A stretch of DNA of 46,456 bases from Candidatus Aerophobota bacterium (lineage in GTDB: Bacteria > Aerophobota > Aerophobia > Aerophobales > B3-G15), in the NCBI GenBank assembly GCA_014859225.1, contig JACUUP010000001.1, positions 1 through 46,456 on the forward strand. The letters are read 5' to 3'. Below are positions 4,445 through 17,533 of this stretch, piece by piece. Position 1 is the first letter of the stretch. The number at the start of each line of letters is the position of its first letter. The translations under genes and the position numbers were made by a program. The notes beneath the pieces are model-generated. The model was not told the origin of the DNA and ran no database searches. It saw nothing but the letters and a program-made list of their open reading frames with translations.

Positions 4445-4804
4445 TTATCCAATATACCTCATCCTGTATTTGTCTGGCTCTACTACGCAAAAATACTTAT
4501 GTAATTGTGTTTCAACGTGTTCTCGGAGAACTCGCTTAAGCTCTTTATGTATCTCATTGATACTCATAGGTTTACCTCTCAGTAGAATTACACCTGAGGA
4601 TGAGATTTTCTCAATAAATACAAGAGCACCAAAATCCTTATCCCGTGTAATAAATATCCGATTCGTCTCTTTGGCTTTTTTTAATAGTTCACGGTCTGAT
4701 GCCCTGTGCATCCCAATTTCCCGAGCGGTAACAACATTGTGTCCCAATTTTATCAGATAATCAATTGTTACCTGATAGATATCCTGGTCAATTAAGAAAT
4801 GCAT
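4445..4804 (-). CDS. DUF5615-type PIN-like (Mut7-C-like) putative toxin
   Basis: 119 aa. MHFLIDQDI...REIGMHRASDRELLKKAKETNRIFITRDKDFG is the pattern of DUF5615 proteins that pair with DUF433. Overlaps the upstream gene by 1 nt. Confidence 0.7.
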   Translation of the reverse strand: MHFLIDQDIYQVTIDYLIKLGHNVVTAREIGMHRASDRELLKKAKETNRIFITRDKDFGALVFIEKISSSGVILLRGKPMSINEIHKELKRVLREHVETQLHKYFCVVEPDKYRMRYIG

Positions 4805-5070
4805 TATATCTTTTCAAGGTGAACTTCTTCTGAGCGCACAATATCAGTAGCATAGCTAACGCAAGCCTTAACATCATCGGTATCTAAATCGGGATAATAT
4901 TTAGTTACTATCTCCTCAAACGGAATACCTTCCTGCACTAATTCGAGCACATCCTCTACAGTAATCCGTGTACCGGCTATACAGGGTTTGCCAAAGTGAA
5001 TATTTGGGTCAATAACTATTCTTTCTGTATATTTTTCTTTTTTCGCCATTCTTAAACTCCTTTTCAGCAA
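4804..5070 (-). CDS. DUF433 domain putative antitoxin
   Basis: 88 aa. IDPNIHFGKPCIAGTRITVEDVLELVQEGIPFEEIVTKYYPDLDTDDVKACVSYA matches the DUF433 signature (FGKP.I.GTRI.V..VL). AAGGAG RBS and its own promoter. Confidence 0.75.
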   Translation of the reverse strand: MLKRSLRMAKKEKYTERIVIDPNIHFGKPCIAGTRITVEDVLELVQEGIPFEEIVTKYYPDLDTDDVKACVSYATDIVRSEEVHLEKI

Positions 5071-5162: not shown

Positions 5163-5855
5163 TTATTCATCTTTGTCCCTACGCTCCTGCACCTTTCTTT
5201 TTATCCTTTCCATCATGTCTTTCAACTTCTGTGTTTGTTTTCGCTCCTCTTCTGTTTTTGGTTCAAGCTCAGGTCTTGTTACTCTCCAGGTAACCTTTCT
5301 ACACACAGCATCTTCAGGATAAGCACCAGGGTCATAAAGAGTGTAGTCCCTGAATTTTGTGGACTTTTCCTGATAACAGGACCATACTGCCTGTCTTATA
5401 ACATCAGGATGCCCCTCATTTAGAAGATTGACGAGGGACACCTGTTTTCTTAACCTTTCCACTATCTCCGAAGGGATATTAAATAGATAAGGTGTTGGAG
5501 CCTTTGCTCCGATAATTTTCTTTCTCTCATCTATCCCATTTTTAAAAAGCTTCATAAGGGCATCACCTGTTGCATGGCCAGGAGATTCAGGTCCGGCAAG
5601 CACAAGATAACGGATATTGGGATTTGCCACCAGGTTACAGACCATCTTCTCTATCCCGATGTTCTCTGTTTGAAGAGTTCCAGATAAGGCGGCTCCCGCC
5701 TCAACTCCCACCCTTACCAGATTTTCAATGTCAGGGGGAATATTATCATAAGGATAGTTCAGAATAATCACCACTGCAACAGGTGATAGGTCATTTCCTC
5801 TCAGGTAATGCCCTTCTTCTGGGGGATAATCAGCCGGGGGTTGAATTTTTCGCAT
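5163..5855 (-). CDS. soluble MtrA-like corrinoid-binding protein (homologue of tetrahydromethanopterin S-methyltransferase subunit A)
   Basis: 230 aa. ...SPVAVVIL...GTLQTENIGIEKMVCNLVANPNIRYLVLAGPESPGHATGDALMKLFKNGIDERKKIIGAKAPTPYLFNIPSEIVERLRKQVSLVNLLNE aligns with my recollection of MtrA ([41 protein letters not shown]...), including the GH histidine. The C-terminus is a K/E-rich tail rather than the membrane helix of MtrA. Confidence 0.75.
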   Translation of the reverse strand: MRKIQPPADYPPEEGHYLRGNDLSPVAVVIILNYPYDNIPPDIENLVRVGVEAGAALSGTLQTENIGIEKMVCNLVANPNIRYLVLAGPESPGHATGDALMKLFKNGIDERKKIIGAKAPTPYLFNIPSEIVERLRKQVSLVNLLNEGHPDVIRQAVWSCYQEKSTKFRDYTLYDPGAYPEDAVCRKVTWRVTRPELEPKTEEERKQTQKLKDMMERIKRKVQERRDKDE

Positions 5856-5874
5856 TAGCTCTCTCTTGTAGAAT

Positions 5875-6309
5875 TTATGCCTCTTTCAGAGCATCTACAA
5901 TTAAGTTTTTTGCCTTCTCCACATCTTCCTGAGAAATATACTCCATTAAGGGTTTTAGACTCTTTCCAATATCCTCATGAAGCGCTTTTTTCTTCATCCC
6001 TATATCTCTTGCCAGGACAAAACTTTTGGTTGGTTTAAATCCTGCCTCTTCCACCACTTTTCTTGAGCACTCACTGGGACATCCATCAACGGTAATTATT
6101 TTCTTTGCTGCCTTTGTCTTACCATGAACGGGAGGCACGCCTACCGGAAGTCCAGCCAGGCATCCTATTGCTACTTTATCAAGACCAACTTCTTTCACTG
6201 CTTCCATGCTGGCAAGCGCTGCAACAATTCCTGTATTAGAGAGTCCTCCAAAGCAGTTAAAAATGATATTTTCATGCGTTGGCATTCCTTCTTTCCATTC
6301 TGGCATCAT
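5875..6309 (-). CDS. DGC-domain putative zinc-binding protein
   Basis: VDGCPSEC (the DGC motif) plus two further Cys (NCFGG, IGCLAG). I prefer the ATG at 6309, which follows AAAGGAGGAAGA. That ATG overlaps the stop of the upstream thioredoxin-fold gene (ATGA). The track start at 6327 would overlap by 22 nt. Confidence 0.65.
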   Translation of the reverse strand: MMPEWKEGMPTHENIIFNCFGGLSNTGIVAALASMEAVKEVGLDKVAIGCLAGLPVGVPPVHGKTKAAKKIITVDGCPSECSRKVVEEAGFKPTKSFVLARDIGMKKKALHEDIGKSLKPLMEYISQEDVEKAKNLIVDALKEA

Positions 6310-6545
6310 TCTTCCTCCTTTAACCATTTCTTTATTTTATCAGGTGAGGCAATCTCCCCTGAACATTTAATTTTGCCATCAATGGCAAGCGCCGGAGTCA
6401 TCATCACCCCGAACTTACTAATTTCTCGTACATCTTGCACCTTTTCAATCTCGGCTTCAATACCAAGCTCTTCAATTGCTTCCCTGGCATTTGCCTCTAA
6501 TTTCCTGCATTTTGCACAACCTATTCCAAGGACTTGGACTTTCAT
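6306..6545 (-). CDS. small thioredoxin-fold protein (redox-active disulfide protein 2 / Thioredoxin_3 type)
   Basis: 79 aa. MKVQVLGIGCAKCRKLEANAREAIEELGIEAEIEKVQDVREISKFGVMMTPALAIDGK has the CxxC (CAKC) and the family's typical layout. Confidence 0.8.
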   Translation of the reverse strand: MKVQVLGIGCAKCRKLEANAREAIEELGIEAEIEKVQDVREISKFGVMMTPALAIDGKIKCSGEIASPDKIKKWLKEEE

Positions 6546-6577
6546 ACTATCACCCTCCTTACGGTGTTTTTTTTATT

Positions 6578-7612
6578 TTAAAATACAAATGTTCCAAAAA
6601 TCATCCCGATAAAAGTGGACATAATAACAACTAAACCTATGTAAACAAGTGCCCTCTTTGTCCCCATAATACTTCTTATCACCAGCATATTAGGAAGGGA
6701 AAGTGCAGGCCCTGCAAGAAGAAGAGCCAGGGCAGGCCCTCGTCCCATACCCAAATCAAGAAAAGCTCTTAAGATGGGAACCTCGGTTAAGGTGGCAAAG
6801 TACATAAGAGCCCCGGCAACTGATGCTATGAAATTAGACCTTAGGGCATTTCCTCCCACCCAGGTCCTTATCACCTCAGGTGGTAAATACTCCCTGATTA
6901 TCCCGGCAGCAAACACTCCCACAAGAAGCCAGGGCAAAATAAGCCTGGTAAACTGCCAGGTTGCGGCAAGCCAGGATACAACTTCCTCTTTGCTGAACCA
7001 GAGCTTCAGCAGGATGACCAGGAAAACAAGTAACGCCACCACTATCCACCACCTCCCCCAGGCACCAAAAATGAGAATTGCTACGAGGTCGGCAAAAAAC
7101 AAAAGGGTTACAAGGGGATTTTTCCGGGAATCGTCAGTATCAGCTGTAAGGACAAACTCCTTTTTCTTCCCTTTCTCCCTTTTTTCCTGGAATAATTTTG
7201 CCATTATAAGTCCAATAATGATGGAAAAGCCAACTGCTCCAATTGCTCGTGCTATACCAAGCTCTATCCCTAAAAGACGTGCAGAGTAAATAATGGCAAG
7301 AAGGTTGATGGCAGGCCCTGAGTAGAGAAAAGTCGTGGCAGGGCCTATGCCTGCTCCCATAGTATATATCCCGGAGAAAAGGGGAAGAATCGTGCAGCTA
7401 CACACAGCAAGCACTGTTCCTGCAACCGATGCGATAGCGTAGGATAGGAATTTATTGGCAGATGGACCAAAATATTTTAAAATTACCTCCTTTTTGACCA
7501 TGCTGCTTATTGCCCCGGCTATGAAAAATGCAGGAACAAGACAGGTCAAAACATGAGCCGAGAGATACTCAAGTAGTGCCCTTGCCCCTGATAAGAAAAC
7601 GGATACGAACAT
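6578..7612 (-). CDS. ArsP-like (PF03773/DUF318-type) permease
   Basis: 344 aa and polytopic. AVCSCTILPLF keeps the vicinal Cys pair of the ArsP TPFCSCS motif. Lies immediately downstream of arsR. Confidence 0.75.
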   Translation of the reverse strand: MFVSVFLSGARALLEYLSAHVLTCLVPAFFIAGAISSMVKKEVILKYFGPSANKFLSYAIASVAGTVLAVCSCTILPLFSGIYTMGAGIGPATTFLYSGPAINLLAIIYSARLLGIELGIARAIGAVGFSIIIGLIMAKLFQEKREKGKKKEFVLTADTDDSRKNPLVTLLFFADLVAILIFGAWGRWWIVVALLVFLVILLKLWFSKEEVVSWLAATWQFTRLILPWLLVGVFAAGIIREYLPPEVIRTWVGGNALRSNFIASVAGALMYFATLTEVPILRAFLDLGMGRGPALALLLAGPALSLPNMLVIRSIMGTKRALVYIGLVVIMSTFIGMIFGTFVF

Positions 7613-7669
7613 TCATTTCTCCTTTTTATGATTCAATGGTCAGCTTAGCATATAGTGTGCAAAAAAATT

Positions 7670-7981
7670 TTAAGTTAACAGGGCCATTTTTTCCTTTACC
7701 AGTTTTTTTACAAAAGATAAAACAAGCTCAAGTATTTTAAACACATTGTCATCCTGCACCCGGTAGTAAACACTTACTCCCTCCTTTCTTGAGGAAAGTA
7801 TCCCGGCTCTTTTTAAAGCAGCAAGATGACGGGAGACATTGGATTGCTCTTCTCCTAAGTAAGGAAAAATCTCGCACACACATCTTTCCCCTTCCCTCAG
7901 GTAGTTAACAATTCTTATTCTTGTGGGATGCGAGAGTGCCTTCAAATACTCAGCCTGTGCCTCATACACCCTCTGGTTCAT
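7670..7981 (-). CDS. arsR: ArsR/SmtB family metal(loid)-responsive repressor
   Basis: 103 aa. LKALSHPTRIRIVNYL...ERCVCEI...SNVSRHLAALKRAGIL is a winged HTH with the CVC alpha-3 site of As(III)-type ArsR. Confidence 0.9.
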   Translation of the reverse strand: MNQRVYEAQAEYLKALSHPTRIRIVNYLREGERCVCEIFPYLGEEQSNVSRHLAALKRAGILSSRKEGVSVYYRVQDDNVFKILELVLSFVKKLVKEKMALLT

Positions 7982-8000: not shown

Positions 8001-8052
8001 TTTATGATTAGATGCTCATAAAGTATTATAAATAAAATTATACTACTGTCAA
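8001..8052 (-). promoter_or_regulatory. arsR (cassette 1) promoter and putative operator
   Basis: On the minus strand: TTGACA (8052-8047), 16-nt spacer, TATAAT (8030-8025). The inverted repeat TTTATGA-N8-TCATAAA (8001-8022) lies just downstream of the -10. The same architecture recurs at cassette 2. Confidence 0.55.
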
Positions 8053-8609: not shown

Positions 8610-8939
8610 ATGAGACTAAATGAAAAGGAGGAACTTGCACTGAGAAAATTTAGATCGACAATAGAAAAAGTATTAGGAGGTAATCTTGTAGAAGTAAAGT
8701 TGTTTGGCTCCAGAGTTCGTGGAGACGCTCGGAAGGACTCTGATATAGATGTACTAGTAATCATATCAAGTGGTGACTGGCGGATGCGGGATGTAATTTA
8801 TGACATAGCTACTGATGTACTTCTTGAAACTGAAGTTTGCATATCTCCAAAGGTTATCAACAGAAAGGAGTATGAGTATCTTTCCAATATAGGAGCTCCT
8901 TTTATAACAAATGTTATTCGAGAAGGAATTACAGTATGA
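8610..8939 (+). CDS. MNT-type nucleotidyltransferase (antitoxin of HEPN/MNT type VII TA)
   Basis: 109 aa. LFGSRVRGDARKDSDIDVLVI is the GS-x-RG...DxD minimal nucleotidyltransferase motif. GGAGGA RBS. Stop overlaps the HEPN start (ATGA). Confidence 0.85.
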   Translation: MRLNEKEELALRKFRSTIEKVLGGNLVEVKLFGSRVRGDARKDSDIDVLVIISSGDWRMRDVIYDIATDVLLETEVCISPKVINRKEYEYLSNIGAPFITNVIREGITV

Positions 8940-9325
8940 ACGAAAGGGAGTGGGCTAATAAAGAATTGATACGGGCTAAAAAGGCTCTTCTTGCGGCAAA
9001 GACGCTATTAGAGAAAGATTTGTTTGAGGATTGTGTCTCCAGAGCTTATTACGCTGTCCTTCATGCTGCAAAGGCAGCTTTGACCTTATCTAAAATTGAA
9101 GTGGATACCCATAATGGAGTACGAAGAATGTTTGGCCTTCATCTTGTTAAAACGGGAAAAATAGAGAAAGAATTTGCGAAAATACTCACAAGAGAGCAAG
9201 AAGATAGAGAAATGGGAGACTATGAAGTTGGTGTCGAAATAGAAGAAGAAACAGCAAGACAAAGAGTTAATGAGGCTGAGAAATTTATACGAAGAATTGA
9301 ACAATACCTTCAGGTAACTAAGTAA
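8936..9325 (+). CDS. HEPN domain protein (toxin of HEPN/MNT TA)
   Basis: 129 aa. SRAYYAVLHAAKA contains the Rx4-6H HEPN motif. All-helical composition, paired with MNT. Confidence 0.85.
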   Translation: MNEREWANKELIRAKKALLAAKTLLEKDLFEDCVSRAYYAVLHAAKAALTLSKIEVDTHNGVRRMFGLHLVKTGKIEKEFAKILTREQEDREMGDYEVGVEIEEETARQRVNEAEKFIRRIEQYLQVTK

Positions 9326-9355: not shown

Positions 9356-9394
9356 GGCTCTCTCATCTATAAAACAGGAGTGGTGGCTATTTTT
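9356..9394. repeat. 39-bp direct repeat, copy 2
   Basis: GGCTCTCTCATCTATAAAACAGGAGTGGTGGCTATTTTT. It includes the stop codon and last 5 nt of the 9387-10058 gene. Confidence 0.9.
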
Positions 9395-10058
9395 TCTCTC
9401 CTGTCTCATCCTTGTTTCCCACTATCTTATCCACAACTTTTTTCCAGGAGGTAGATTCGCCACCGAATCCTTCATAAAAGAAGCGATAATCGTGTTTTCT
9501 AATAAACTCTTGGAGCTGAAAAAGATGTTCCTGTAAGGTGTGCAACTGACACTGCTTGAAGATTTCCTTTTCTTCCTCTCTGGCTAATCTTGAACAAATC
9601 ACCAGGAAATGTTGCATACAAAGTCCAAAACTTTGCTGATAGAGATTCTGAAAATCCTTTTCAGGAAAATTTTTTAAAAAGATACTGATATATCGCTCCT
9701 CAACCTCATCGGAAAACCTACAAACCGGACACCCTTTCCCAGGATAAGAAATTTCTGCTCCTTTTTCTATTTTCTCCCTGAGAATTGAGCAAATATCCTC
9801 GTAGATTATTGCTATACCCAGGGGCTTTCCCACCTCTTTGGCTAATGTGGCATGTCTTGGGCAGAACCCATACGATTTTCTCAATTTCTCCCTAACCCCG
9901 GGGTCATTGACCAGTTCATAAAAAAGAGTGTCCATAAAGGAGAGCTCAGACTTTTTAATAAGAAAACAAACAGGGCATGTGTTTTCTTTCATAGCCTCCA
10001 GAAGTTCAAAATAGCTGCTGTCATAAAAACTTTCGTTTCTCTGTTTTTCTTTTCCCAT
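9387..10058 (-). CDS. uncharacterised protein with two CPVC...(F/L)CxxH modules (possibly DUF6062-like; family name from memory, unverified)
   Basis: 223 aa. C28-P-V-C31...C66-P-R-H69 and C110-P-V-C113...C147-M-Q-H150 have near-identical spacing (34-35 residues). It sits downstream of a fluoride riboswitch. Confidence 0.8.
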   Translation of the reverse strand: MGKEKQRNESFYDSSYFELLEAMKENTCPVCFLIKKSELSFMDTLFYELVNDPGVREKLRKSYGFCPRHATLAKEVGKPLGIAIIYEDICSILREKIEKGAEISYPGKGCPVCRFSDEVEERYISIFLKNFPEKDFQNLYQQSFGLCMQHFLVICSRLAREEEKEIFKQCQLHTLQEHLFQLQEFIRKHDYRFFYEGFGGESTSWKKVVDKIVGNKDETGEKK

Positions 10059-10143: not shown

Positions 10144-10229
10144 AAATAAAAAACCCCTACTTTTAAAAAGTAGGGGTTATCATCCTGCACTAATTTGCAG
10201 GCAGTTAAGGGTGAACCCCATCACCTTGA
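10144..10229 (-). promoter_or_regulatory. fluoride riboswitch (crcB motif) with intrinsic-terminator expression platform
   Basis: Minus-strand RNA: AAGGUGAUGGGGUUCACCCUUAACUGCCUGCAAAUUAGUGCAGGAUGAUAACCCCUACUUUUUAAAAGUAGGGGUUUUUUAUUU. P1 is GGUG/CACC around an 8-nt loop AUGGGGUU. The conserved AACUGCC is present. P3 is CCUGCA/UGCAGG, followed by GAUGAU...CCUAC. The pseudoknot pairs GGGGUU with AACCCC. It aligns column by column with my recollection of the Thermotoga petrophila aptamer (GGCGAUGAGGCCCGCCCAAACUGCCCUGAAAAGGGCUGAUGGCCUCUAC). The 3' pseudoknot strand is also the 5' arm of the terminator stem, as in an ON switch. Confidence 0.8.
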
Positions 10230-10248
10230 TTTATTGGGCTTGAGAGAC

Positions 10249-10324: not shown

Positions 10325-10633
10325 TTATTCTGTTTTCACTATCTGCATACCCATTATCCTTACTCCACCCTCTGTCCTCATGGACAAAGTCGCCGGCTTC
10401 GTAATAAGGCACTGTCCTTCTCTGATGGTTATCTTTTCCTCGTCCACCGTCACCTCAGCTTCTCCCTCAACAACATAAAAAATGACATGAGAAGACATCT
10501 CACAAACTGGAATTTTGTCCCCGGGAGATAGTGCAATAATTAATGTCTTAAATTCCTTTGCCTTATGAAAAACATTCTTTTGCCTCTCTTCATACGGGTA
10601 TGCGGTCATTGTTTTGAGGTCAAATACCTGCAT
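10325..10633 (-). CDS. cupin domain protein
   Basis: 102 aa. SSHVIFYVVEGEAEVTVDEEKITIREGQCL is typical of a small monocupin beta-barrel. Overlaps the upstream permease gene. Confidence 0.7.
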   Translation of the reverse strand: MQVFDLKTMTAYPYEERQKNVFHKAKEFKTLIIALSPGDKIPVCEMSSHVIFYVVEGEAEVTVDEEKITIREGQCLITKPATLSMRTEGGVRIMGMQIVKTE

Positions 10634-11192
10634 TATTTTCTTCTCCTTTTTTAGATTTGTTCATTTTTTTATCGCCCCATTCAACTACTCGTTCTATAAA
10701 AAACCCCATGGCGGCCACCAGGATAATAGTTAGAATGAGTCTGGTAGCCATAAATCCGAATCCTAAAAATTGTAGCTCCACCATCTCCTGAGGAATCTTT
10801 ATGCACGCCCAGGCAGATAGAAAAATAACTATATTGGAGATACTTGCCCCTTTTTTAATGAGAGCCGAAGCTAAAGGAAACGCCACATAAAGAGGACCTG
10901 TGGGAAGCGCACCAAAAAGGATTGCCACAAAGATACCCTTTGTACCTGAAGTTTTGCCCAAATACTTTACCACAAGCTCCCTGGAGATAAAAACACTGAA
11001 AAGACCCATTAAAACCATTACTGCAGGAAGTATCATGATCATCTCAAGAAAAAAATCCCAGGCGGTAGTAGTTACTGGTCCTTTTTTCTCCGGGAAAACT
11101 ACAATAAGAATCGCTACGAAAATCACTATTGCTGCCAGCATAGCCCAATCTCTTACCAATTTTCCTGTTTGTTTTCCTTTTTTACCCCTCAT
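10620..11192 (-). CDS. permease, second component of a two-gene PF03773-like transporter
   Basis: 190 aa with about 5 TM segments. GALPTGPLYVAFPLASALIKKGASISNIVIFLSAWACIK resembles the equivalent segment of the upstream partner. ATGA overlap with that partner. Confidence 0.7.
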   Translation of the reverse strand: MRGKKGKQTGKLVRDWAMLAAIVIFVAILIVVFPEKKGPVTTTAWDFFLEMIMILPAVMVLMGLFSVFISRELVVKYLGKTSGTKGIFVAILFGALPTGPLYVAFPLASALIKKGASISNIVIFLSAWACIKIPQEMVELQFLGFGFMATRLILTIILVAAMGFFIERVVEWGDKKMNKSKKGEENNAGI

Positions 11193-11671
11193 AGAACCGC
11201 CCCCATAATAAGAGCAATAACAATGGCAATGACAAAACTTATTCCATTACGAAGAAAAGCCATTTTCTTTCCCAGTTCTTTTATCTCCAGAGGCAAGGTA
11301 ACTGTTCCAATCATGGTCAATGTGGTGATAAATGCTGCCACGGCAGAAATTGATGCCCCGCTTTTAAGAAGCGATGCAGCAAGGGGAAAGGAGACAAGAG
11401 CTGGAATGTGCAAAACTGCCCCTACCATGGCAATAATAACTATTCCAATCAGGCCGGATTGCTCACCTATAAATTGAGAAATTTTTTCCGGTGGGATAAA
11501 TCCTAAAAGAAGACCAATGAGGATGACAATAATAAGCACAACCGGCAAAATACGCAAAAGTGATTTTGCTGCTACTATAAGAGATTTTTTTGTTTTTTCT
11601 TTGTTTTTAAAAACCGCAAAGAAAAGACAACTAAGGGCAAAGACATTTATGAAAACAGCGGTTAGACTCAT
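11189..11671 (-). CDS. permease, first component of a two-gene PF03773-like transporter
   Basis: 160 aa. AVLHIPALVSFPLAASLLKSGASISAVAAFITTLTMIG is paralogous to the partner gene. Confidence 0.7.
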   Translation of the reverse strand: MSLTAVFINVFALSCLFFAVFKNKEKTKKSLIVAAKSLLRILPVVLIIVILIGLLLGFIPPEKISQFIGEQSGLIGIVIIAMVGAVLHIPALVSFPLAASLLKSGASISAVAAFITTLTMIGTVTLPLEIKELGKKMAFLRNGISFVIAIVIALIMGAVL

Positions 11672-15036: not shown

Positions 15037-15600
15037 TCACAGCTCAGGAGTGGCATACCCTGCGTCCTTTAGAACCTTCAGCAAACTTTCTCTTGCCTTT
15101 TTGTATTCATCGGTAAAAAAAGGCTTGCACATATCAATAGATACTTCCTCAGTCACCAGTTTACTGGCAAAAGCCATGCAGGTTGCCTGTCCACAATCTC
15201 CACAGTTGGTTCGGGGTAAAAGCTTGTAGATACCAAGGGCTGTTAATTTGGCACGCGTCTTGTAGCTCGGAGTAATCGTGTCTTTGTCCTCGTAGGTTCG
15301 GTTGATCAGGTCTTTTACCTCACCCAGAACTTTTTTTGCCTCTTCAGGATTTTTGCATCCTGCAACAAGCATATTTTCAGGATAAAGAGTAACCCCTCTA
15401 CCCTCTTGCCTAAAAGAAAGTGTCCTGGCTTCTGGATTATAGATAGTCCCTTTAAAGATGGCATTCAAGTAGGGAAATGCAGGGCTAATATCACCTATAA
15501 GCTCTGCTGTAGCCGTAACCGTCTCTACCTCTCCGGGACGGCAGGGTGGAAAAAAGGTATTGATTTTACGAAGCTCTTTGAGAAGCATACACCCTCTCAT
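15037..15600 (-). CDS. protein with C-terminal CFeSP (AcsC)-type [4Fe-4S] domain; N-terminal ~125 aa unknown
   Basis: LTALGIYKLLPRTNCGDCGQATCMAFASKLVTEEVSIDMCKPF aligns with my recollection of the N-terminal Fe-S domain of the corrinoid iron-sulfur protein large subunit (LTGLEIYKQLPKKNCGECGTPTCLAFAMNLASGKASLDSCPY). The exact start (Met1 or Met5) is uncertain. Confidence 0.7.
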   Translation of the reverse strand: MRGCMLLKELRKINTFFPPCRPGEVETVTATAELIGDISPAFPYLNAIFKGTIYNPEARTLSFRQEGRGVTLYPENMLVAGCKNPEEAKKVLGEVKDLINRTYEDKDTITPSYKTRAKLTALGIYKLLPRTNCGDCGQATCMAFASKLVTEEVSIDMCKPFFTDEYKKARESLLKVLKDAGYATPEL

Positions 15601-15763
15601 AATAGTTATTGTCTACTTTAACCATGTTGGTCAGCTCCTGGTATTTAATCGTAAAAGACAATTAGCAAAAAGCAGCCTACCCTACTCAAATTCCAACCAG
15701 CAAACCTTATAATAGAACACAGGAGGAAAATGTCAAATATCGCATTCTATATCAAAAAGTATC

Positions 15764-15831
15764 AAAAAGGGGACAGATTTATTTTCTGCTTTGCAGGAAG
15801 AAAATTAAAGAAAATAAATCTGTCCCCTTTT
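15764..15831. repeat. long perfect hairpin element, copy B
   Basis: AAAAAGGGGACAGATTTATTTT (15764-15785) and AAAATAAATCTGTCCCCTTTT (15811-15831). The arms are identical to copy A, but the 25-nt loop is unrelated. Confidence 0.85.
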
Positions 15832-15857
15832 ATTTTGGAGGATATTCAGCTGGAGGT

Positions 15858-16100
15858 TCAACTTTTCTCATTCTTGAGCCATTTTTTTATTTTATCAGGT
15901 GAGGCAATCTCCCCTGAACACATGAGCTTGCCGTCAATGGCAAGAGCCGGGGTCATCATTACCCCGAATTTGCTAATTTCTCGCACATCCTGCACCTTCT
16001 CAATCTCGGCTTCAACACCGAGCTCATCAATGGCTTCCCTGGCATTTGCCTCAAGCTTTCTACACTTTGCACAACCTGTTCCAAGAATCTGAACTTTCAT
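15858..16100 (-). CDS. small thioredoxin-fold protein (paralogue of 6306-6545)
   Basis: MKVQILGTGCAKCRKLEANAREAIDELGVEAEIEKVQDVREISKFGVMMTPALAIDGK... About 90% identical by hand alignment to the cassette 1 protein. ATG at 16100 with a GGGAGGG RBS. The longer track ORF (to 16178) overlaps the permease. Confidence 0.8.
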   Translation of the reverse strand: MKVQILGTGCAKCRKLEANAREAIDELGVEAEIEKVQDVREISKFGVMMTPALAIDGKLMCSGEIASPDKIKKWLKNEKS

Positions 16101-16128
16101 ACTATTCACCCTCCCTGCCGTGTTTTTT

Positions 16129-17166
16129 TTAAAACACAAATATTCCAAAAAGCATCCCGATAAAGGTGGACATAGCAACTACTAAAGTTATGTAAACAAG
16201 TGCTCTTTTTGTTCCCATGATGCTTCTTATAACGAGCATATTCGGGAGCGAGAGCGCAGGTCCAGCAAGAAGGAGCGCTAAGGCTGGCCCTCTTCCCATA
16301 CCTAAATCGAGAAAGGCTCGCAGGATTGGAACCTCGGTCAACGTGGCAAAGTACATCAATGACCCGGCAACTGATGCTATGAAATTAGAACGTAGTGCGT
16401 TTCCTCCCACCCAGGTCCTTATCACCTCAGGTGGCAAAAACTCTCTGATTATCCCGGCAGCAAATACTCCCACAAGGAGCCAGGGCAAAATTAGCAGGAC
16501 AAACTGATAGGTTGCTGCAAGCCAGGACAAAATCTCATTCTTGGTGAACCAGATTTTCAGCACAATGACCAGGAGCACGAGCAAGCCTGTAACTATCAAC
16601 CACTGTCCCCAGGCACCAAAAATGAGGATTCCTACGAGGTCGGCAAAGAATAAAAGGACTGCAGCAGGATTTTTTGAAGGTGTTTTGGGGTCAGCTACCG
16701 GAGAAAATTTTACCTTTTCCGCATCCTTTGTCCTTTTTTTCTCAAATATAGATGACATTATAAGACCAATAACGATGGAAAAGCCAACTGCCCCAATTGC
16801 TCGTGCTATACCAAGCTCTATCCCTAAAAGACGCGCCGAGTAAATAATGGCAAGCAGATTGATAGCAGGGCCTGAGTATAAAAAAGTGGTGGCAGGACCT
16901 ATTCCTGCTCCCAGGCTGTATATTCCGGAAAAAAGGGGAAGGATGGTGCAACTGCAAACAGCAAGCACTGTTCCTGCAACTGATGCTATGGCGTAGGATA
17001 AAACCTTGTTGGCAGAAGGTCCAAAGTACTTCAAGATAATTTCTTTTTTCACCATACTGCTTATCGCCCCGGCAATAAAAAAAGCAGGAACAAGACAGGT
17101 TAAAACATGAGCCGAGAGATACTCAATGAGTGCCCTCACCCCTGATAAGAGAATGGACACTAACAT
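16129..17166 (-). CDS. ArsP-like (PF03773-type) permease, paralogue of 6578-7612
   Basis: 345 aa, collinear with the cassette 1 permease and with the same AVCSCTILPLF motif. Most differences lie in the central loop. Confidence 0.75.
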   Translation of the reverse strand: MLVSILLSGVRALIEYLSAHVLTCLVPAFFIAGAISSMVKKEIILKYFGPSANKVLSYAIASVAGTVLAVCSCTILPLFSGIYSLGAGIGPATTFLYSGPAINLLAIIYSARLLGIELGIARAIGAVGFSIVIGLIMSSIFEKKRTKDAEKVKFSPVADPKTPSKNPAAVLLFFADLVGILIFGAWGQWLIVTGLLVLLVIVLKIWFTKNEILSWLAATYQFVLLILPWLLVGVFAAGIIREFLPPEVIRTWVGGNALRSNFIASVAGSLMYFATLTEVPILRAFLDLGMGRGPALALLLAGPALSLPNMLVIRSIMGTKRALVYITLVVAMSTFIGMLFGIFVF

Positions 17167-17221
17167 TTGTTTCTCCTTTTTATGATTAAATGGTCAGCTT
17201 AGCATATATTGCGGAAAAATT

Positions 17222-17533
17222 TTAGCTTAAAATGGCGGCTTTTTCCTTTGCTACTTTTTTTACAAAAGATAAAACAAGCTCAAGTACCTTAAACACATTT
17301 TCATCCTGCACTCTGTAATAAACACTTACCCCCTTTTTCCTTGAAGAAAGTATCCCTGCTCTTTTTAAAGCAGCAAGGTGGCGCGAGATATTGGACTGTT
17401 CCTCCCCAAGATGAGGAAAAATCTCACATACACACATCTCATTCTTCCTCAAATACTCAACAATCTTTATCCTGGTTGGATGAGATAGCGCCTTGAAATA
17501 TTTTGCCTGTGCCTCATAAATTTTTCCATCCAC
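17222..17533 (-). CDS. arsR: ArsR/SmtB family repressor, paralogue of 7670-7981
   Basis: 103 aa. NEMCVCEI keeps the CVC site. 82 of 103 residues are identical to the cassette 1 ArsR by my hand alignment. Confidence 0.9.
   Translation of the reverse strand: MDGKIYEAQAKYFKALSHPTRIKIVEYLRKNEMCVCEIFPHLGEEQSNISRHLAALKRAGILSSRKKGVSVYYRVQDENVFKVLELVLSFVKKVAKEKAAILS

Follow-up and report, generated by a model that had tools for sequence, protein, structure and literature searches.

An MtrA-like, probably cobamide-binding protein as an accessory component of arsenic-resistance gene clusters of anaerobes

The methanogen protein MtrA and its soluble cytoplasmic homologues (5LAA, 5L8X, 8Q3V; PF04208) share a fold in which the cobalt of the corrinoid is coordinated by a histidine, His84 in MtrA, with Glu54 as its hydrogen-bonded partner (PMC4915002). 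Among corrinoid proteins tied to a toxic metal(loid), HgcAB combines a corrinoid protein with a ferredoxin and has a demonstrated activity in methylating Hg(II). The hgcAB genes of P. mercurii ND132 answer to an ArsR-like regulator that responds to arsenic, and the same strain has an arsenic-inducible ArsR-ArsP-ArsE operon. Arsenite is methylated by the SAM-dependent methyltransferase ArsM, and organoarsenicals are the province of ArsP/ArsEFG-type modules, whose characterised members lack a corrinoid protein. Methylotrophic methanogens demethylate DMAs by way of their corrinoid systems (PMC10579292). The implicated MtaBC/MtaA-type systems act on methylated arsenic under anoxia through a protein-bound cobamide methyl carrier of the MetH-type B12-binding family, which has MT1 and MT2 enzymes and activases of its own; these systems take arsenic as a side substrate and are encoded outside ars operons. 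Additionally, As(III) is methylated by methylcobalamin without any enzyme under reducing conditions, the ratio of CH3-Cob(III) to Cob(I) setting methylation versus hydride formation (PMC6950371). Our literature search found no paper tying the MtrA-like family described here to arsenic.

The window analysed here comprises 46,456 nucleotides of the Candidatus Aerophobota (Aerophobetes) contig JACUUP010000001.1. Five co-directional minus-strand genes encode ArsR, a PF03773 permease, an ArsE-family thioredoxin, a DGC-domain protein and an MtrA-like protein, and the open reading frame list and translations place all five head to tail where a sequence-only reading had put them. They form a single ArsR-controlled operon with the MtrA-like gene last. 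A predicted sigma-70-type promoter (TTGACA-16 nt-TATAAT; 8025-8052, minus strand) agrees with the consensus at 12 of 12 positions and sits 44 nt 5' of the arsR ATG. Between its -10 box and the arsR start, the inverted repeat TTTATGA-N8-TCATAAA (8001-8022, minus strand) coincides with the operator position proposed earlier and is a candidate ArsR operator; a near-identical element precedes a paralogous arsR at about 17.55 kb. The thioredoxin gene ends in the ATGA with which the DGC gene opens, and 19 nt separate the DGC gene from the MtrA-like gene, both as previously described. The longest DGC reading frame spans 5875-6327 on the minus strand, but because the ATGA overlap stands behind an AGGAGG site we set the start at 6309, giving a protein of 144 rather than 150 aa.

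Each of the five proteins matched the Pfam model expected of it (HTH_5, ArsP_1, Thioredoxin_3, DGC and MtrA, respectively). ArsR (103 aa; 7670-7981, minus strand; HTH_5 5.9e-17; NCBIfam NF033788 95.1 bits, cutoff 55) carries the predicted ERCVCEI sequence, a CVC pair within the DNA-binding region, and CVC[D/E] occurs in 39 of 66 ArsR genes adjoining MtrA-like genes at other loci. The permease (344 aa; 6578-7612, minus strand; ArsP_1 2.7e-82) likewise contains the anticipated AVCSCTILP, whose CSC motif is retained in 29 of 37 related permeases. It passes no NCBIfam equivalog, the curated ArsP and ArsG models included; the closest models, SO_0444 Cu/Zn efflux and SaoE, both score under their cutoffs. 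The thioredoxin-fold CxxC protein (79 aa; 6306-6545, minus strand; Thioredoxin_3 9.6e-29) has a GCAKC motif and belongs to the MTH895/ArsE family (TIGR00412 105.6 bits, cutoff 62). This trio matches ArsP/ArsEFG-type modules, and the homologous operon of ND132 is the arsenic-induced one; unlike those modules, the window has no ArsF. The DGC-domain protein (5875-6309, minus strand; Pfam DGC 1.2e-17) shows a VDGC motif and four conserved cysteines, C19, C50, C77 and C81, each kept in 22-25 of 25 sequences; a PDB sequence search returned no solved relative of its family. The zinc finger named in the sequence-only reading is thus at best putative.

A second module lies at 15037-17533 on the minus strand, with ArsR (17222-17533), ArsP_1 (16129-17166) and Thioredoxin_3 (about 15858-16100) 79, 85 and 91% identical in amino acids to their counterparts in the first. 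Nucleotide identity is 82% over 1766 nt, promoter and operator included. Where the first module has the DGC and MtrA-like genes, the second has a 187-aa protein with a PF04060 Fe-S domain (15037-15600, minus strand), homologs of which were found in two ars loci with MtrA-like genes (L023 and L047).

The MtrA-like protein itself (230 aa; 5163-5855, minus strand) matches Pfam MtrA (PF04208) over residues 5-168 (1.1e-41), and PDB profile searches recovered 5laa (6.5e-46) and 8q3v (6e-42). Foldseek aligned it with 5laa and 5l8x at a TM of about 0.8 and 35-38% identity, from an AlphaFold model of moderate quality (pLDDT 72) that resolves the family-specific C-terminal region poorly. In the profile alignment H94 corresponds to the cobalt-ligand histidine and E64 to its glutamate partner, in agreement with the homology and GH histidine claimed earlier, and nucleotide-tail contacts are shared with methanogen MtrA. 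The cobalamin-contact positions Y17, T63, E64, N65, G67, N74 and H94 are kept in 73-81 of 81 sequences. The protein probably binds a cobamide, judging from these residues. Unlike methanogen MtrA it is bacterial, has a 10-residue insertion (41-50) and lacks a membrane helix (maximum 19-residue Kyte-Doolittle mean 0.87), being soluble like the cytoplasmic homologues, and no mtrB-H genes were found in the flanks of its gene, as the sequence-only reading held for both the helix and the partners. That reading saw the helix replaced by a K/E-rich tail. This stands in that 23 of the final 35 residues are charged, but the tail is more than that: a Rossmann-like core (about 5-170) is followed by a family-specific motif (about 185-205) with conserved W190, P195, P199, K200 and R205, and only then by the charged helix.

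The family has two conserved cysteines, and these raise the very unlikely alternative that cobamide binding has been lost and that the MtrA scaffold now serves as an ArsD-like arsenic-binding chaperone or regulator through Cys73 and Cys160. Cys73 is invariant and family-specific, being Ala in MtrA, and isolated MtrA holds cobalamin less tightly than MtrA in its complex (PMC4915002). However, no more than two cysteines are conserved, and Cys160 is common to true MtrA; one family member, P0276, has Ala in place of Cys73 yet retains the histidine; and retention of the cobalamin contacts at such frequencies would be hard to explain without the ligand.

The database name of the protein, 'tetrahydromethanopterin S-methyltransferase subunit A', would suit a remnant of tetrahydromethanopterin/coenzyme M C1 metabolism lying by chance beside an ars-like operon. 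The protein passes the NCBIfam subfamily model NF002126 (190.6 bits, cutoff 161), and MtrA-like proteins of non-methanogens are usually read as C1 enzymes (PMC11291895). Yet it scores below the cutoff of the true mtrA equivalog TIGR01111 (136.5 bits, cutoff 249), helix and mtrB-H partners are missing as noted, and the shared promoter and close spacing put the gene inside the ArsR operon. Its relatives tell against chance as well. The family counts more than 3,800 matches at 63-87% identity across phyla and is encoded by 393 species-level genomes of about 15 phyla; in three independent metagenome lineages the gene stands among ArsR, Acr3, ArsC, ArsM, DGC and Thioredoxin_3 genes. Counting ArsR, Acr3, ArsC, ArsM and ArsP_1 as core ars genes, at least one lies within 6 kb in 65 of 79 species-level MtrA-like loci and at least three in 41 of 79, nearly always on the same strand; among loci with full flanks the figure is 35 of 38. 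With increasing distance the core ars genes thin out tenfold, from 0.51 per kb to 0.05 per kb across 8 kb, and neighbours exceed curated cutoffs (ArsM 310 bits, cutoff 263; ACR3 382 bits, cutoff 283). This synteny, the distance decay and the enrichment over control loci given below contradict chance adjacency, which we consider extremely improbable. The linkage to ArsR/permease modules is thus far beyond chance, and the gene lies outside H4MPT/coenzyme M metabolism whatever its database name says, in arsenic-resistance clusters and not methanogenesis operons.

We compared these loci with 80 Acr3-anchored control loci, a set that has another anchor gene, shorter contigs and a bias toward one Acr3 type; only 2 of the 80 contain an MtrA-like gene. 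ArsP_1 (OR 4.0), Thioredoxin_3 (OR 4.4), DGC (OR 6.2), DsbD and large thioredoxin genes are enriched 4-6 fold around MtrA-like genes (p 3e-4 to 9e-4), so that the expected co-occurrence with PF03773, Thioredoxin_3 and DGC is borne out. The proposed pairing of MtrA-like and DGC genes holds only as this enrichment: the two are direct neighbours in 1 of 18 loci having both, and they are independent accessory genes of one cluster type with no conserved direct pair. The MtrA-like family truly belongs, as an accessory, to a type of arsenic-resistance module that is characteristic of anaerobes and combines an ArsP_1 permease and an ArsE-family thioredoxin with a DGC protein of four conserved cysteines. 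Matches to MtrA models, the retained histidine, synteny and enrichment together therefore give good support to the metalloid-resistance linkage and to probable cobamide binding, the part of the earlier proposal of a cobamide-dependent metal(loid) system that stands.

Its methylation or demethylation part is weakened by some of the evidence. ArsM, a protein of unrelated fold and cofactor that shares ars clusters with the MtrA-like gene, shows no enrichment (42% versus 39% of control loci, p=0.85), and this window has none. Near MtrA-like genes we found no conserved methyl-loading partner (MtrH, MeTr, MtaB or MtaA type) and no conserved activase of RamA type; because none travels with the gene, methylation or demethylation is something that we only infer. 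A live rival, although we rate it as unlikely, is that the bound cobamide passes on electrons at low potential, as carrier or reductant, and transfers no methyl group; it could, for instance, feed thioredoxin-coupled ArsC, a thiol relay (Thioredoxin_3, DGC, DsbD/thioredoxin) or ArsEF-like reduction of organoarsenicals. The lack of a methyl-loading enzyme favours it, as does the observation that all enriched partners are thiol/disulfide proteins, which fit a purely redox role equally well. ArsC directly adjoins the MtrA-like gene in 14 of the 28 loci that have it, and one locus (L073) fuses it in-frame to the MtrA-like protein; ArsF-family proteins occur in about 10 loci. P0276 is a ferredoxin fusion, small ferredoxins adjoin the gene in several loci, and loci without ars genes have a NuoF-like oxidoreductase or a ferredoxin-nitroreductase beside it, all of which hints at Co(I) chemistry. 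With an NADH-dependent Fe-S flavoprotein among the occasional partners or fusions, these iron-sulfur associations are compatible with redox chemistry no less than with methyl transfer. Against a role without methyl transfer, ArsC is depleted relative to controls (35% versus 62%), and we know of no characterised system in which thioredoxin-type ArsC requires cobamide. Methyl carriage is, to our knowledge, the sole function of the MtrA fold. Additionally, methyl carriers typically hold their corrinoid His-on and leave its upper face exposed (PMC4915002).

Links to methylation are hinted at by ArsM being the immediate neighbour in 14 of the 24 loci that have it, and by a sister family (NCBIfam NF002128) of Burkholderia, Cupriavidus and Planococcus. 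Its proteins have an MtrA domain with the same histidine and TEN motif, about 40% identical over the MtrA core only, but differ in a Cys-rich N-terminus, a C-terminal PterinBD-DUF4346 domain and occurrence in aerobes. Their genes adjoin metal-responsive regulators (CadR/PbrR-like MerR, ArsR/SmtB), metal efflux genes, AhpD-like or DsbD proteins and small SAM methyltransferases, the latter a further hint of a methyl link. In about nine contexts inspected the setting was Cd/Pb/Zn/Cu as often as arsenic, and two (L092 and L097) had no metal genes. A complete ArsM fused to a sister-family protein, encoded behind acr3, hints in the same direction; it comes from one metagenome contig of 3 kb, a search for a second such fusion found none, and it concerns the sister family and not the one described here.

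A more doubtful possibility than electron transfer is that under arsenic stress the protein serves to sequester or chaperone cobamide, shielding Co(I)/CH3-Co(III) from As(III)-thiol side reactions or supplying B12-dependent enzymes, arsenic conversion not being its purpose. As(III) reacts non-enzymatically with free methylcobalamin and cob(I)alamin (PMC6950371), which makes loss of or damage to the cofactor pool through arsenic plausible. A small protein that stands alone, lacks a constant catalytic partner and changes place from one ars cluster to another would suit this role, and very strong family conservation is as expected of a tight ligand binder. However, the MtrA-like gene has no linked cobalamin riboswitch, transporter gene or adenosyltransferase gene, and the B12 chaperones known so far come from other families. 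The ferredoxin fusion and the ArsM adjacency and fusion also point toward active chemistry.

The reading we prefer, to which we give about an even chance, is an ArsR operon whose cobamide-binding MtrA-like accessory protein acts on arsenic, likeliest by methyl transfer. As(III) would free ArsR from the inverted repeat. The MtrA-like protein would carry a cobamide cycling through Co(I) and act directly on thiol-bound trivalent arsenic, most likely moving a methyl group to or from it via CH3-Co(III)/Co(I); the same Co(I) chemistry could instead end in reduction to arsine. Thioredoxin and DGC, with DsbD/thioredoxin elsewhere, may hold or reduce arsenic and cofactor, and the product would leave through the ArsP_1 permease. 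The nearest parallel is HgcAB: the MtrA-like protein, with its predicted cobamide, is likewise tied to a toxic metal(loid) and in some cases has a 2x[4Fe-4S] ferredoxin as partner or fusion domain. The two are not homologous, HgcA having a CFeSP-type corrinoid domain, a Cys ligand and a membrane domain where the MtrA-like protein has the MtrA fold, a His ligand and a soluble form, and methylation is demonstrated for HgcAB but proposed for the MtrA-like family. The MtrA-like family is a widespread, previously unremarked member of ars clusters in oxygen-avoiding bacteria, and it hints at B12-based arsenic handling.

Sequence analysis of relatives shows that the gene for the MtrA-like protein is solidly linked to a metalloid resistance system. 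The protein passed the NCBIfam subfamily NF002126 (190.6 against a cutoff of 161) and is 100% identical to an NCBI entry from the Aerophobetes lineage, named ‘tetrahydromethanopterin S-methyltransferase subunit A’. Searches returned more than 3,800 matches at 63-87% identity in Aerophobetes, Nitrospirota and Terriglobia, and a scan of one genome per species placed the family in 393 genomes. The first three homologs on long contigs all lay among genes for ArsR, Acr3, LMW-PTP ArsC, an ArsM-like methyltransferase, DGC and Thioredoxin_3. We then took the 80 best loci, covering about 15 phylum-level lineages (Acidobacteriota, Planctomycetota, Nitrospirota, Aerophobetes, Chloroflexota, Desulfobacterota, Lentisphaerota, Verrucomicrobiota, Omnitrophota, Bipolaricaulota, Spirochaetota, Armatimonadota, Nitrospinota, Bacillota and others), and searched their six-frame ORFs with HMMs built from the window proteins and from neighbours that carry a Pfam label. 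Counted on 79 loci and to a distance of 6 kb from the MtrA-like gene, we found ArsR in 51, Acr3 in 48, ArsP_1 in 32, DsbD_TM in 31, Thioredoxin_3 in 30, LMW-PTP ArsC in 28, an ArsM-type methyltransferase in 24, a large thioredoxin in 22-23, DGC in 17-18 and a small ferredoxin in 13, where the ranges reflect two counting methods that differ by one. These families lie almost always on the strand of the MtrA-like gene, and representative neighbours pass curated cutoffs (ArsM, 310 versus 263; ACR3, 382 versus 283). At least one core ars gene is present in 65/79 loci and at least three in 41/79; the 14 loci with none are mostly short contigs, and a core ars gene occurs in 35 of the 38 loci whose contigs run on for 4 kb or more in each direction. 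Core ars density falls from 0.51/kb beside the MtrA-like gene to 0.05/kb at 7-8 kb. The sequence-only reading had set synteny with ArsR/permease modules in relatives as a test, and since synteny holds at this level, fully flanked loci included, we regard the linkage as real.

To ask which genes accompany the MtrA-like gene beyond a generic ars cluster, the 48 MtrA-like loci containing Acr3 were compared with 80 metagenome loci anchored on Acr3, a control with a different anchor, shorter contigs (median 7.4 kb) and a bias to one Acr3 type. Enriched over this control were ArsP_1 (52% versus 21%; OR 4.0, p 4.5e-4), Thioredoxin_3 (52% versus 20%; OR 4.4, p 3.5e-4), DGC (29% versus 6%; OR 6.2, p 6.7e-4), DsbD_TM (50% versus 19%; OR 4.3, p 3e-4) and large thioredoxin (35% versus 10%; OR 4.9, p 9e-4), whereas ArsR was similar (77% versus 65%; OR 1.8, p 0.17) and ArsC was, if anything, depleted. 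An enrichment of ArsM was ruled out by the same comparison (42% versus 39%; OR 1.1, p 0.85). Because ArsR, ArsM and ArsC show no general deficit in the controls, a pure length artefact is argued against. The neighbourhood statistics suggested by the sequence-only reading therefore came out in favor of ArsP_1, Thioredoxin_3 and DGC, and the MtrA-like gene travels with exactly the thiol-rich module seen in the window. It was present in just 2/80 control loci, and is thus a minority accessory gene. It also has no fixed direct partner: when present in a locus, the immediate neighbor is ArsM in 14/24, ArsC in 14/28, large thioredoxin in 9/22, Thioredoxin_3 in 10/30, Acr3 in 15/48 and DGC in 1/18. 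The proposed association with DGC consequently stands as co-enrichment and falls as a direct pair; with one adjacency in 18, the 19-nt junction between the two genes in the window is no conserved pairing.

In the window itself, all five minus-strand ORFs were found in the translations, with the motifs quoted for them, and profile searches support each domain: ArsR (7670-7981; Pfam HTH_5, 5.9e-17; NCBIfam NF033788 passed), the permease (6578-7612; ArsP_1, PF03773, 2.7e-82; no NCBIfam equivalog passed), the 79-aa thioredoxin (6306-6545; Thioredoxin_3, 9.6e-29; TIGR00412 ‘MTH895/ArsE family’ passed), the DGC protein (5875-6309; PF08859, 1.2e-17, 64.3 bits versus 27; no NCBIfam family) and the 230-aa MtrA-like protein (5163-5855; PF04208, 1.1e-41, 142.9 bits versus a gathering threshold of 25, residues 5-168). 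The operon layout was likewise borne out. A sequence scan places a perfect consensus promoter, TTGACA-16-TATAAT, at 8052-8025 (-), and the inverted repeat TTTATGA-N8-TCATAAA is read at 8022-8001 (-), between the -10 box and arsR. Gaps of 57 nt and 32 nt follow along the operon, then an ATGA stop/start overlap, then the 19 nt before the MtrA-like gene; as the overlap sits behind an AGGAGG site, the DGC start is set at 6309, for a length of 144 aa. ArsR, the first gene behind promoter and repeat, carries a CVC motif predicted to be an As(III)-type Cys site. Typical ars operons have Acr3/ArsB and/or ArsC, as do many relatives (Acr3 in 48/79, ArsC in 28/79), but an HMM search matched neither Acr3 nor LMW-PTP ArsC anywhere in the window, which also lacks ArsB, and the PF03773 permease is the sole transporter of the operon. 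Judged by its predicted regulator, its synteny and its module type, the operon is nevertheless ars-like. No intrinsic terminator or hairpin was found 3′ of the MtrA-like gene and no cobalamin riboswitch in the window; a sequence scan gives a promoter-like site at 5116-5089, ahead of the DUF433/DUF5615 toxin-antitoxin pair that forms the next unit. Genes for ExbB/ExbD/TonB and for a TPR protein lie in the flanks, as do two toxin-antitoxin-like pairs, DUF433/DUF5615 (PIN-like) at 4445-5070 (-) and nucleotidyltransferase/HEPN at 8610-9325 (+), which bracket the operon and may mark a mobile or variable region.

A second ArsR-ArsP_1-Thioredoxin_3 module lies at 15037-17533 (-), with 79, 85 and 91% amino acid identity to the first and 82% nucleotide identity including promoter and operator. 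Here a 187-aa PF04060 Fe-S protein takes the place of DGC and the MtrA-like protein. Both the corrinoid iron-sulfur protein and RnfB carry the PF04060 Fe-S domain at their N-terminus; in L023 and L047, two of the MtrA-like ars loci, homologs of the 187-aa protein adjoin ferredoxins. Elsewhere in the window, a third ArsP_1 (PF03773) permease is split into half-size genes at 10620-11192 and 11189-11671 (-), overlapping by 4 nt and followed by a small cupin gene (10325-10633, -). A fluoride riboswitch (RF01734, 50.4 bits versus a gathering threshold of 34) is located at 10164-10234 (-), and directly downstream is a DUF6062 gene (PF19538, 5.8e-22; CPVC motifs) at 9387-10058 (-); we know of no recognised fluoride-riboswitch target of the DUF6062 type.

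The second question is whether the protein can still bind a cobamide. In MtrA, the cobamide subunit of the methanogen methyl-H4MPT:CoM methyltransferase, His84 ligates cobalt and is hydrogen-bonded by Glu54, Asn55 contacts a corrin side chain, Thr53, Gly57 and Asn64 contact the nucleotide tail, and Tyr18 and Val61 stack the cobalamin base (Wagner et al., PMC4915002). Profile alignment gives H94, E64, N65, T63, G67, N74, Y17 and M71 as the window equivalents of His84, Glu54, Asn55, Thr53, Gly57, Asn64, Tyr18 and Val61; together with the PF04208 match, this upholds the corrinoid core and His ligand proposed from the sequence. The polar and aromatic positions of the site are kept in 73-81 of 81 family sequences, with H94, E64 and T63 each retained in 80/81, and the M71 position is always hydrophobic (V, I, M or L). 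Such a pattern is expected of a protein that still binds cobamide, and the MtrA-like protein, on the conservation of this site, probably does. An 18-member family profile matched the solved MtrA structures in the PDB (5laa, 6.5e-46; 8q3v, 6e-42; 5l8x, 3.9e-35) and nothing meaningful beyond them, and the AlphaFold model (pLDDT 72) superposes on MtrA structures at a TM-score of about 0.8. Its fold and cofactor site place the protein in the MtrA superfamily. It is no MtrA orthologue, however, because it fails the true-mtrA equivalog TIGR01111 (136.5 bits versus a cutoff of 249.15), lacks the membrane helix and lacks Mtr partners. The helix loss and partner absence claimed earlier were both seen: the maximal 19-residue hydropathy is 0.87, and mtrB-H are absent from the annotated window ORFs, with no recurrent neighbor family of that kind in the 79 MtrA-like loci. 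Where MtrA has its membrane anchor, the family has a strongly charged C-terminal helix; in the window protein, 23 of the last 35 residues are charged and a long soluble helix is predicted. Further differences from MtrA are a 10-residue insertion (41-50), a conserved motif around W190-R205, and Cys73, which is invariant in the family and Ala in MtrA.

Two other members of the module, the permease and the DGC protein, were compared with their families. The window permease carries a CSC pair (AVCSCTILP), and CSC is found in 29/37 related permeases, in 5 of them as PFCSCS. ArsP of Campylobacter is a methylarsenite efflux permease in which a Cys-x-Cys pair in a membrane helix is functional. The closest partial NCBIfam matches of the window permease are SO_0444 Cu/Zn efflux and SaoE, both below cutoff, and arsP itself has been divided into two distinct clusters that probably differ in function (review PMC6205960). 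In the DGC family, D75, G76, C77 and C81 are invariant and C19 and C50 are kept in 22-24/25 sequences; a sequence search found no solved structural relative of the DGC protein, and a literature search found nothing tying the domain to arsenic, as all matches concerned diguanylate cyclases. The Acidobacteriota-type ars cluster of L004 and L005 (2532-5286) has three DGC-domain genes in a row, one of which is a fusion with a glycine-cleavage H (lipoyl) domain; in L004 the row is followed by a lipoate-protein ligase. This lipoyl-DGC array may serve As(III) as a decoy dithiol or as a carrier.

There are several possible routes by which a corrinoid could act on arsenic. Under reducing conditions, As(III) is methylated by methylcobalamin with no need of an enzyme, and whether methylation or formation of the hydride (arsine) prevails is set by the CH3-Cob(III)/Cob(I) ratio (PMC6950371). 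In methylotrophic methanogens, corrinoid systems convert the methyl groups of DMAs to methane, while ArsI needs O2 and anaerobic demethylation, bacterial above all, is described as unsettled (PMC10579292; 10.64898/2026.08.27.747368). From this chemistry, methylation and demethylation are both plausible. In an unbiased clustering of all neighbor ORFs, whose additional clusters were mainly shadow ORFs, antisense or out of frame, within conserved genes, no MtrH/MeTr-, MtaA/MtaB- or RamA-type protein appeared, and the missing methyl-loading and activating partners count against a classical methyl-transfer system. Small ferredoxins do recur in the MtrA-like loci (13/79), sometimes adjacent, and one family representative, P0276, is a 2x[4Fe-4S]-ferredoxin::MtrA-like fusion. 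Two of the few well-flanked loci with no ars genes are also informative: in L025 (4859-7987) the MtrA-like gene follows, by 14 nt, a 1,042-aa NuoF-like NADH/FMN/Fe-S/FAD oxidoreductase, and in L081 (5750-8315) it lies between an AhpD-like protein and a ferredoxin-fused nitroreductase. Both oxidoreductase and ferredoxin-nitroreductase are candidate electron donors for the corrinoid, and we count these neighbors, with the ferredoxins and the P0276 fusion, in favor of low-potential cobalt chemistry. A tie to arsenic enzymes comes from an in-frame MtrA-like::LMW-PTP-type ArsC fusion in a Planctomycetota MAG (L073, 1243-2883) and from the high ArsM adjacency when ArsM is present. Other apparent ArsC-MtrA-like fusions were N-terminally over-extended ORFs, leaving L073 as the sole real one.

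Conservation of the binding site and genomic linkage are thus the observed parts of the picture. The cobamide would cycle through Co(I) and would act on thiol-bound arsenic; we infer that it most likely does so as a methyl carrier. Of the operon for cobamide-dependent metal(loid) methylation or demethylation and export that was first proposed, the metalloid-resistance linkage and the probable cobamide binding are kept, and methylation or demethylation becomes one of several live mechanisms. That the family is the basis of an O2-independent, cobamide-dependent arsenic transformation in anaerobic bacteria, be it methylation, methylarsenical demethylation or arsine formation via Co(I)/CH3-Co(III), is a tentative proposal that we hold to be somewhat unlikely as it stands.

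A sister family widens the setting. Proteins annotated ‘DUF4346’ and 40% identical were found by tblastn of plasmids; they are about 390-460 aa long and consist of an N-terminus rich in Cys, an MtrA domain in which the TEN motif and the His are retained, and a PterinBD-DUF4346 domain at the C-terminus (NCBIfam NF002128). With more than 2,500 matches, the family extends to cultured Burkholderia, Cupriavidus and Planococcus, and the loci inspected include L089 (5455-6834), L090 (5560-6741), L091, L093, L095 and L096. On Planococcus plasmids the gene is last in an ArsR/SmtB - HMA - P-type ATPase operon; in Paraburkholderia and at two metagenome loci a CadR/PbrR-like MerR regulator lies divergent to it, and it is followed by an AhpD-like protein or a small SAM methyltransferase, with a CDF efflux gene near one of the two metagenome loci. 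A CDF efflux gene follows the sister gene in Cupriavidus, and in L093 ArsR, multicopper oxidase and DsbD surround it. Metal-related genes were absent from L092 and L097, 2 of about 9 contexts inspected. An assignment of the small SAM methyltransferases to NCBIfam CpaM (corrinoid protein-associated methyltransferase) was rejected, all being far below cutoff. On one metagenome contig (L094), P0184 (958-2940) joins a full ArsM (367 bits versus 263) and the Cys-rich-MtrA-DUF4346 module in one 660-aa protein; an ACR3 gene (2-961) immediately precedes it and overlaps it by 4 nt. The fusion may be an assembly or frameshift artefact, and as no second ArsM::MtrA-DUF4346 fusion occurs among the best 120 of 6,687 matches, P0184 counts as one adjacency only. 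From this small sample, the contexts suggest metal(loid) stress regulons as the general setting of MtrA-like domains in bacteria. Other architectures were also seen: in P0272, P0273 and P0275 a Cys-rich stretch of about 200 aa extends the MtrA-like protein at its C-terminus, P0273 having in addition a weak TusA-like N-terminus, and P0303, P0306, P0312 and P0323 form a separate clade in which the MtrA domain is fused to a thymidylate-synthase-like (folate-dependent) domain.

The closest functional analogy is HgcAB, which likewise combines a corrinoid protein and ferredoxin with an arsenic-responsive ArsR-like regulator, and is not homologous. In HgcA the corrinoid domain is CFeSP-like, the ligand is a ‘cap helix’ Cys and the partner is a ferredoxin. 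The MtrA-like protein does not match this domain, its matches being PF04208 and the MtrA structures, and a ferredoxin is an occasional partner here (13/79 loci and one fusion). The hgcAB genes have been placed under an arsenic-responsive ArsR-like regulator, and in P. mercurii ND132 arsenic induces a homologous operon, ArsR-ArsP-ArsE. The ArsR-PF03773-Thioredoxin_3 trio of the window resembles ArsP/ArsE-type organoarsenical modules, a likeness drawn in part from NCBIfam family names. In the searchable library we found no paper linking the MtrA-like family to arsenic; two arsenic-genomics surveys leave cobalamin and MtrA unmentioned, and where MtrA-like proteins of non-methanogens are discussed, it is solely as C1 enzymes whose activity is ‘unclear’ (PMC11291895).

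The database name shared by thousands of bacterial proteins, ‘tetrahydromethanopterin S-methyltransferase subunit A’, calls for correction, as it can mislead metabolic reconstructions toward methanogenesis-like C1 metabolism. Few detoxification systems are as well catalogued as arsenic resistance operons, and to our knowledge no described ars gene uses a corrinoid; an ars cluster with a corrinoid component is what is new here. The known methylarsenite-detoxifying enzymes, ArsI and ArsH, both need oxygen. Anaerobic arsenic transformation has practical weight for arsenic speciation in rice paddies and for straighthead disease (PMC10579292; 10.64898/2026.08.27.747368), and methylation, demethylation and volatilisation of arsenic by anaerobes other than methanogens is the gap that the MtrA-like family touches. 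Does an enzyme underlie a cobalamin-dependent, oxygen-independent transformation of arsenic in bacteria? The MtrA-like protein is a concrete candidate, being 230 aa long, soluble and very strongly conserved, and should express easily. If the proposal is true, it would be an anaerobic counterpart of O2-dependent ArsI/ArsH or an alternative to SAM-only ArsM, and would supply the long-missing enzyme behind methylcobalamin-dependent arsenic biomethylation. Taken with the sister family, it would represent a general corrinoid branch of metal(loid) resistance, parallel to HgcAB and of independent origin. The parallel with ArsR-controlled hgcAB, and the Cd/Pb-type regulators of the sister family, suggest that metal(loid) stress responses may repeatedly include an overlooked element of corrinoid chemistry.
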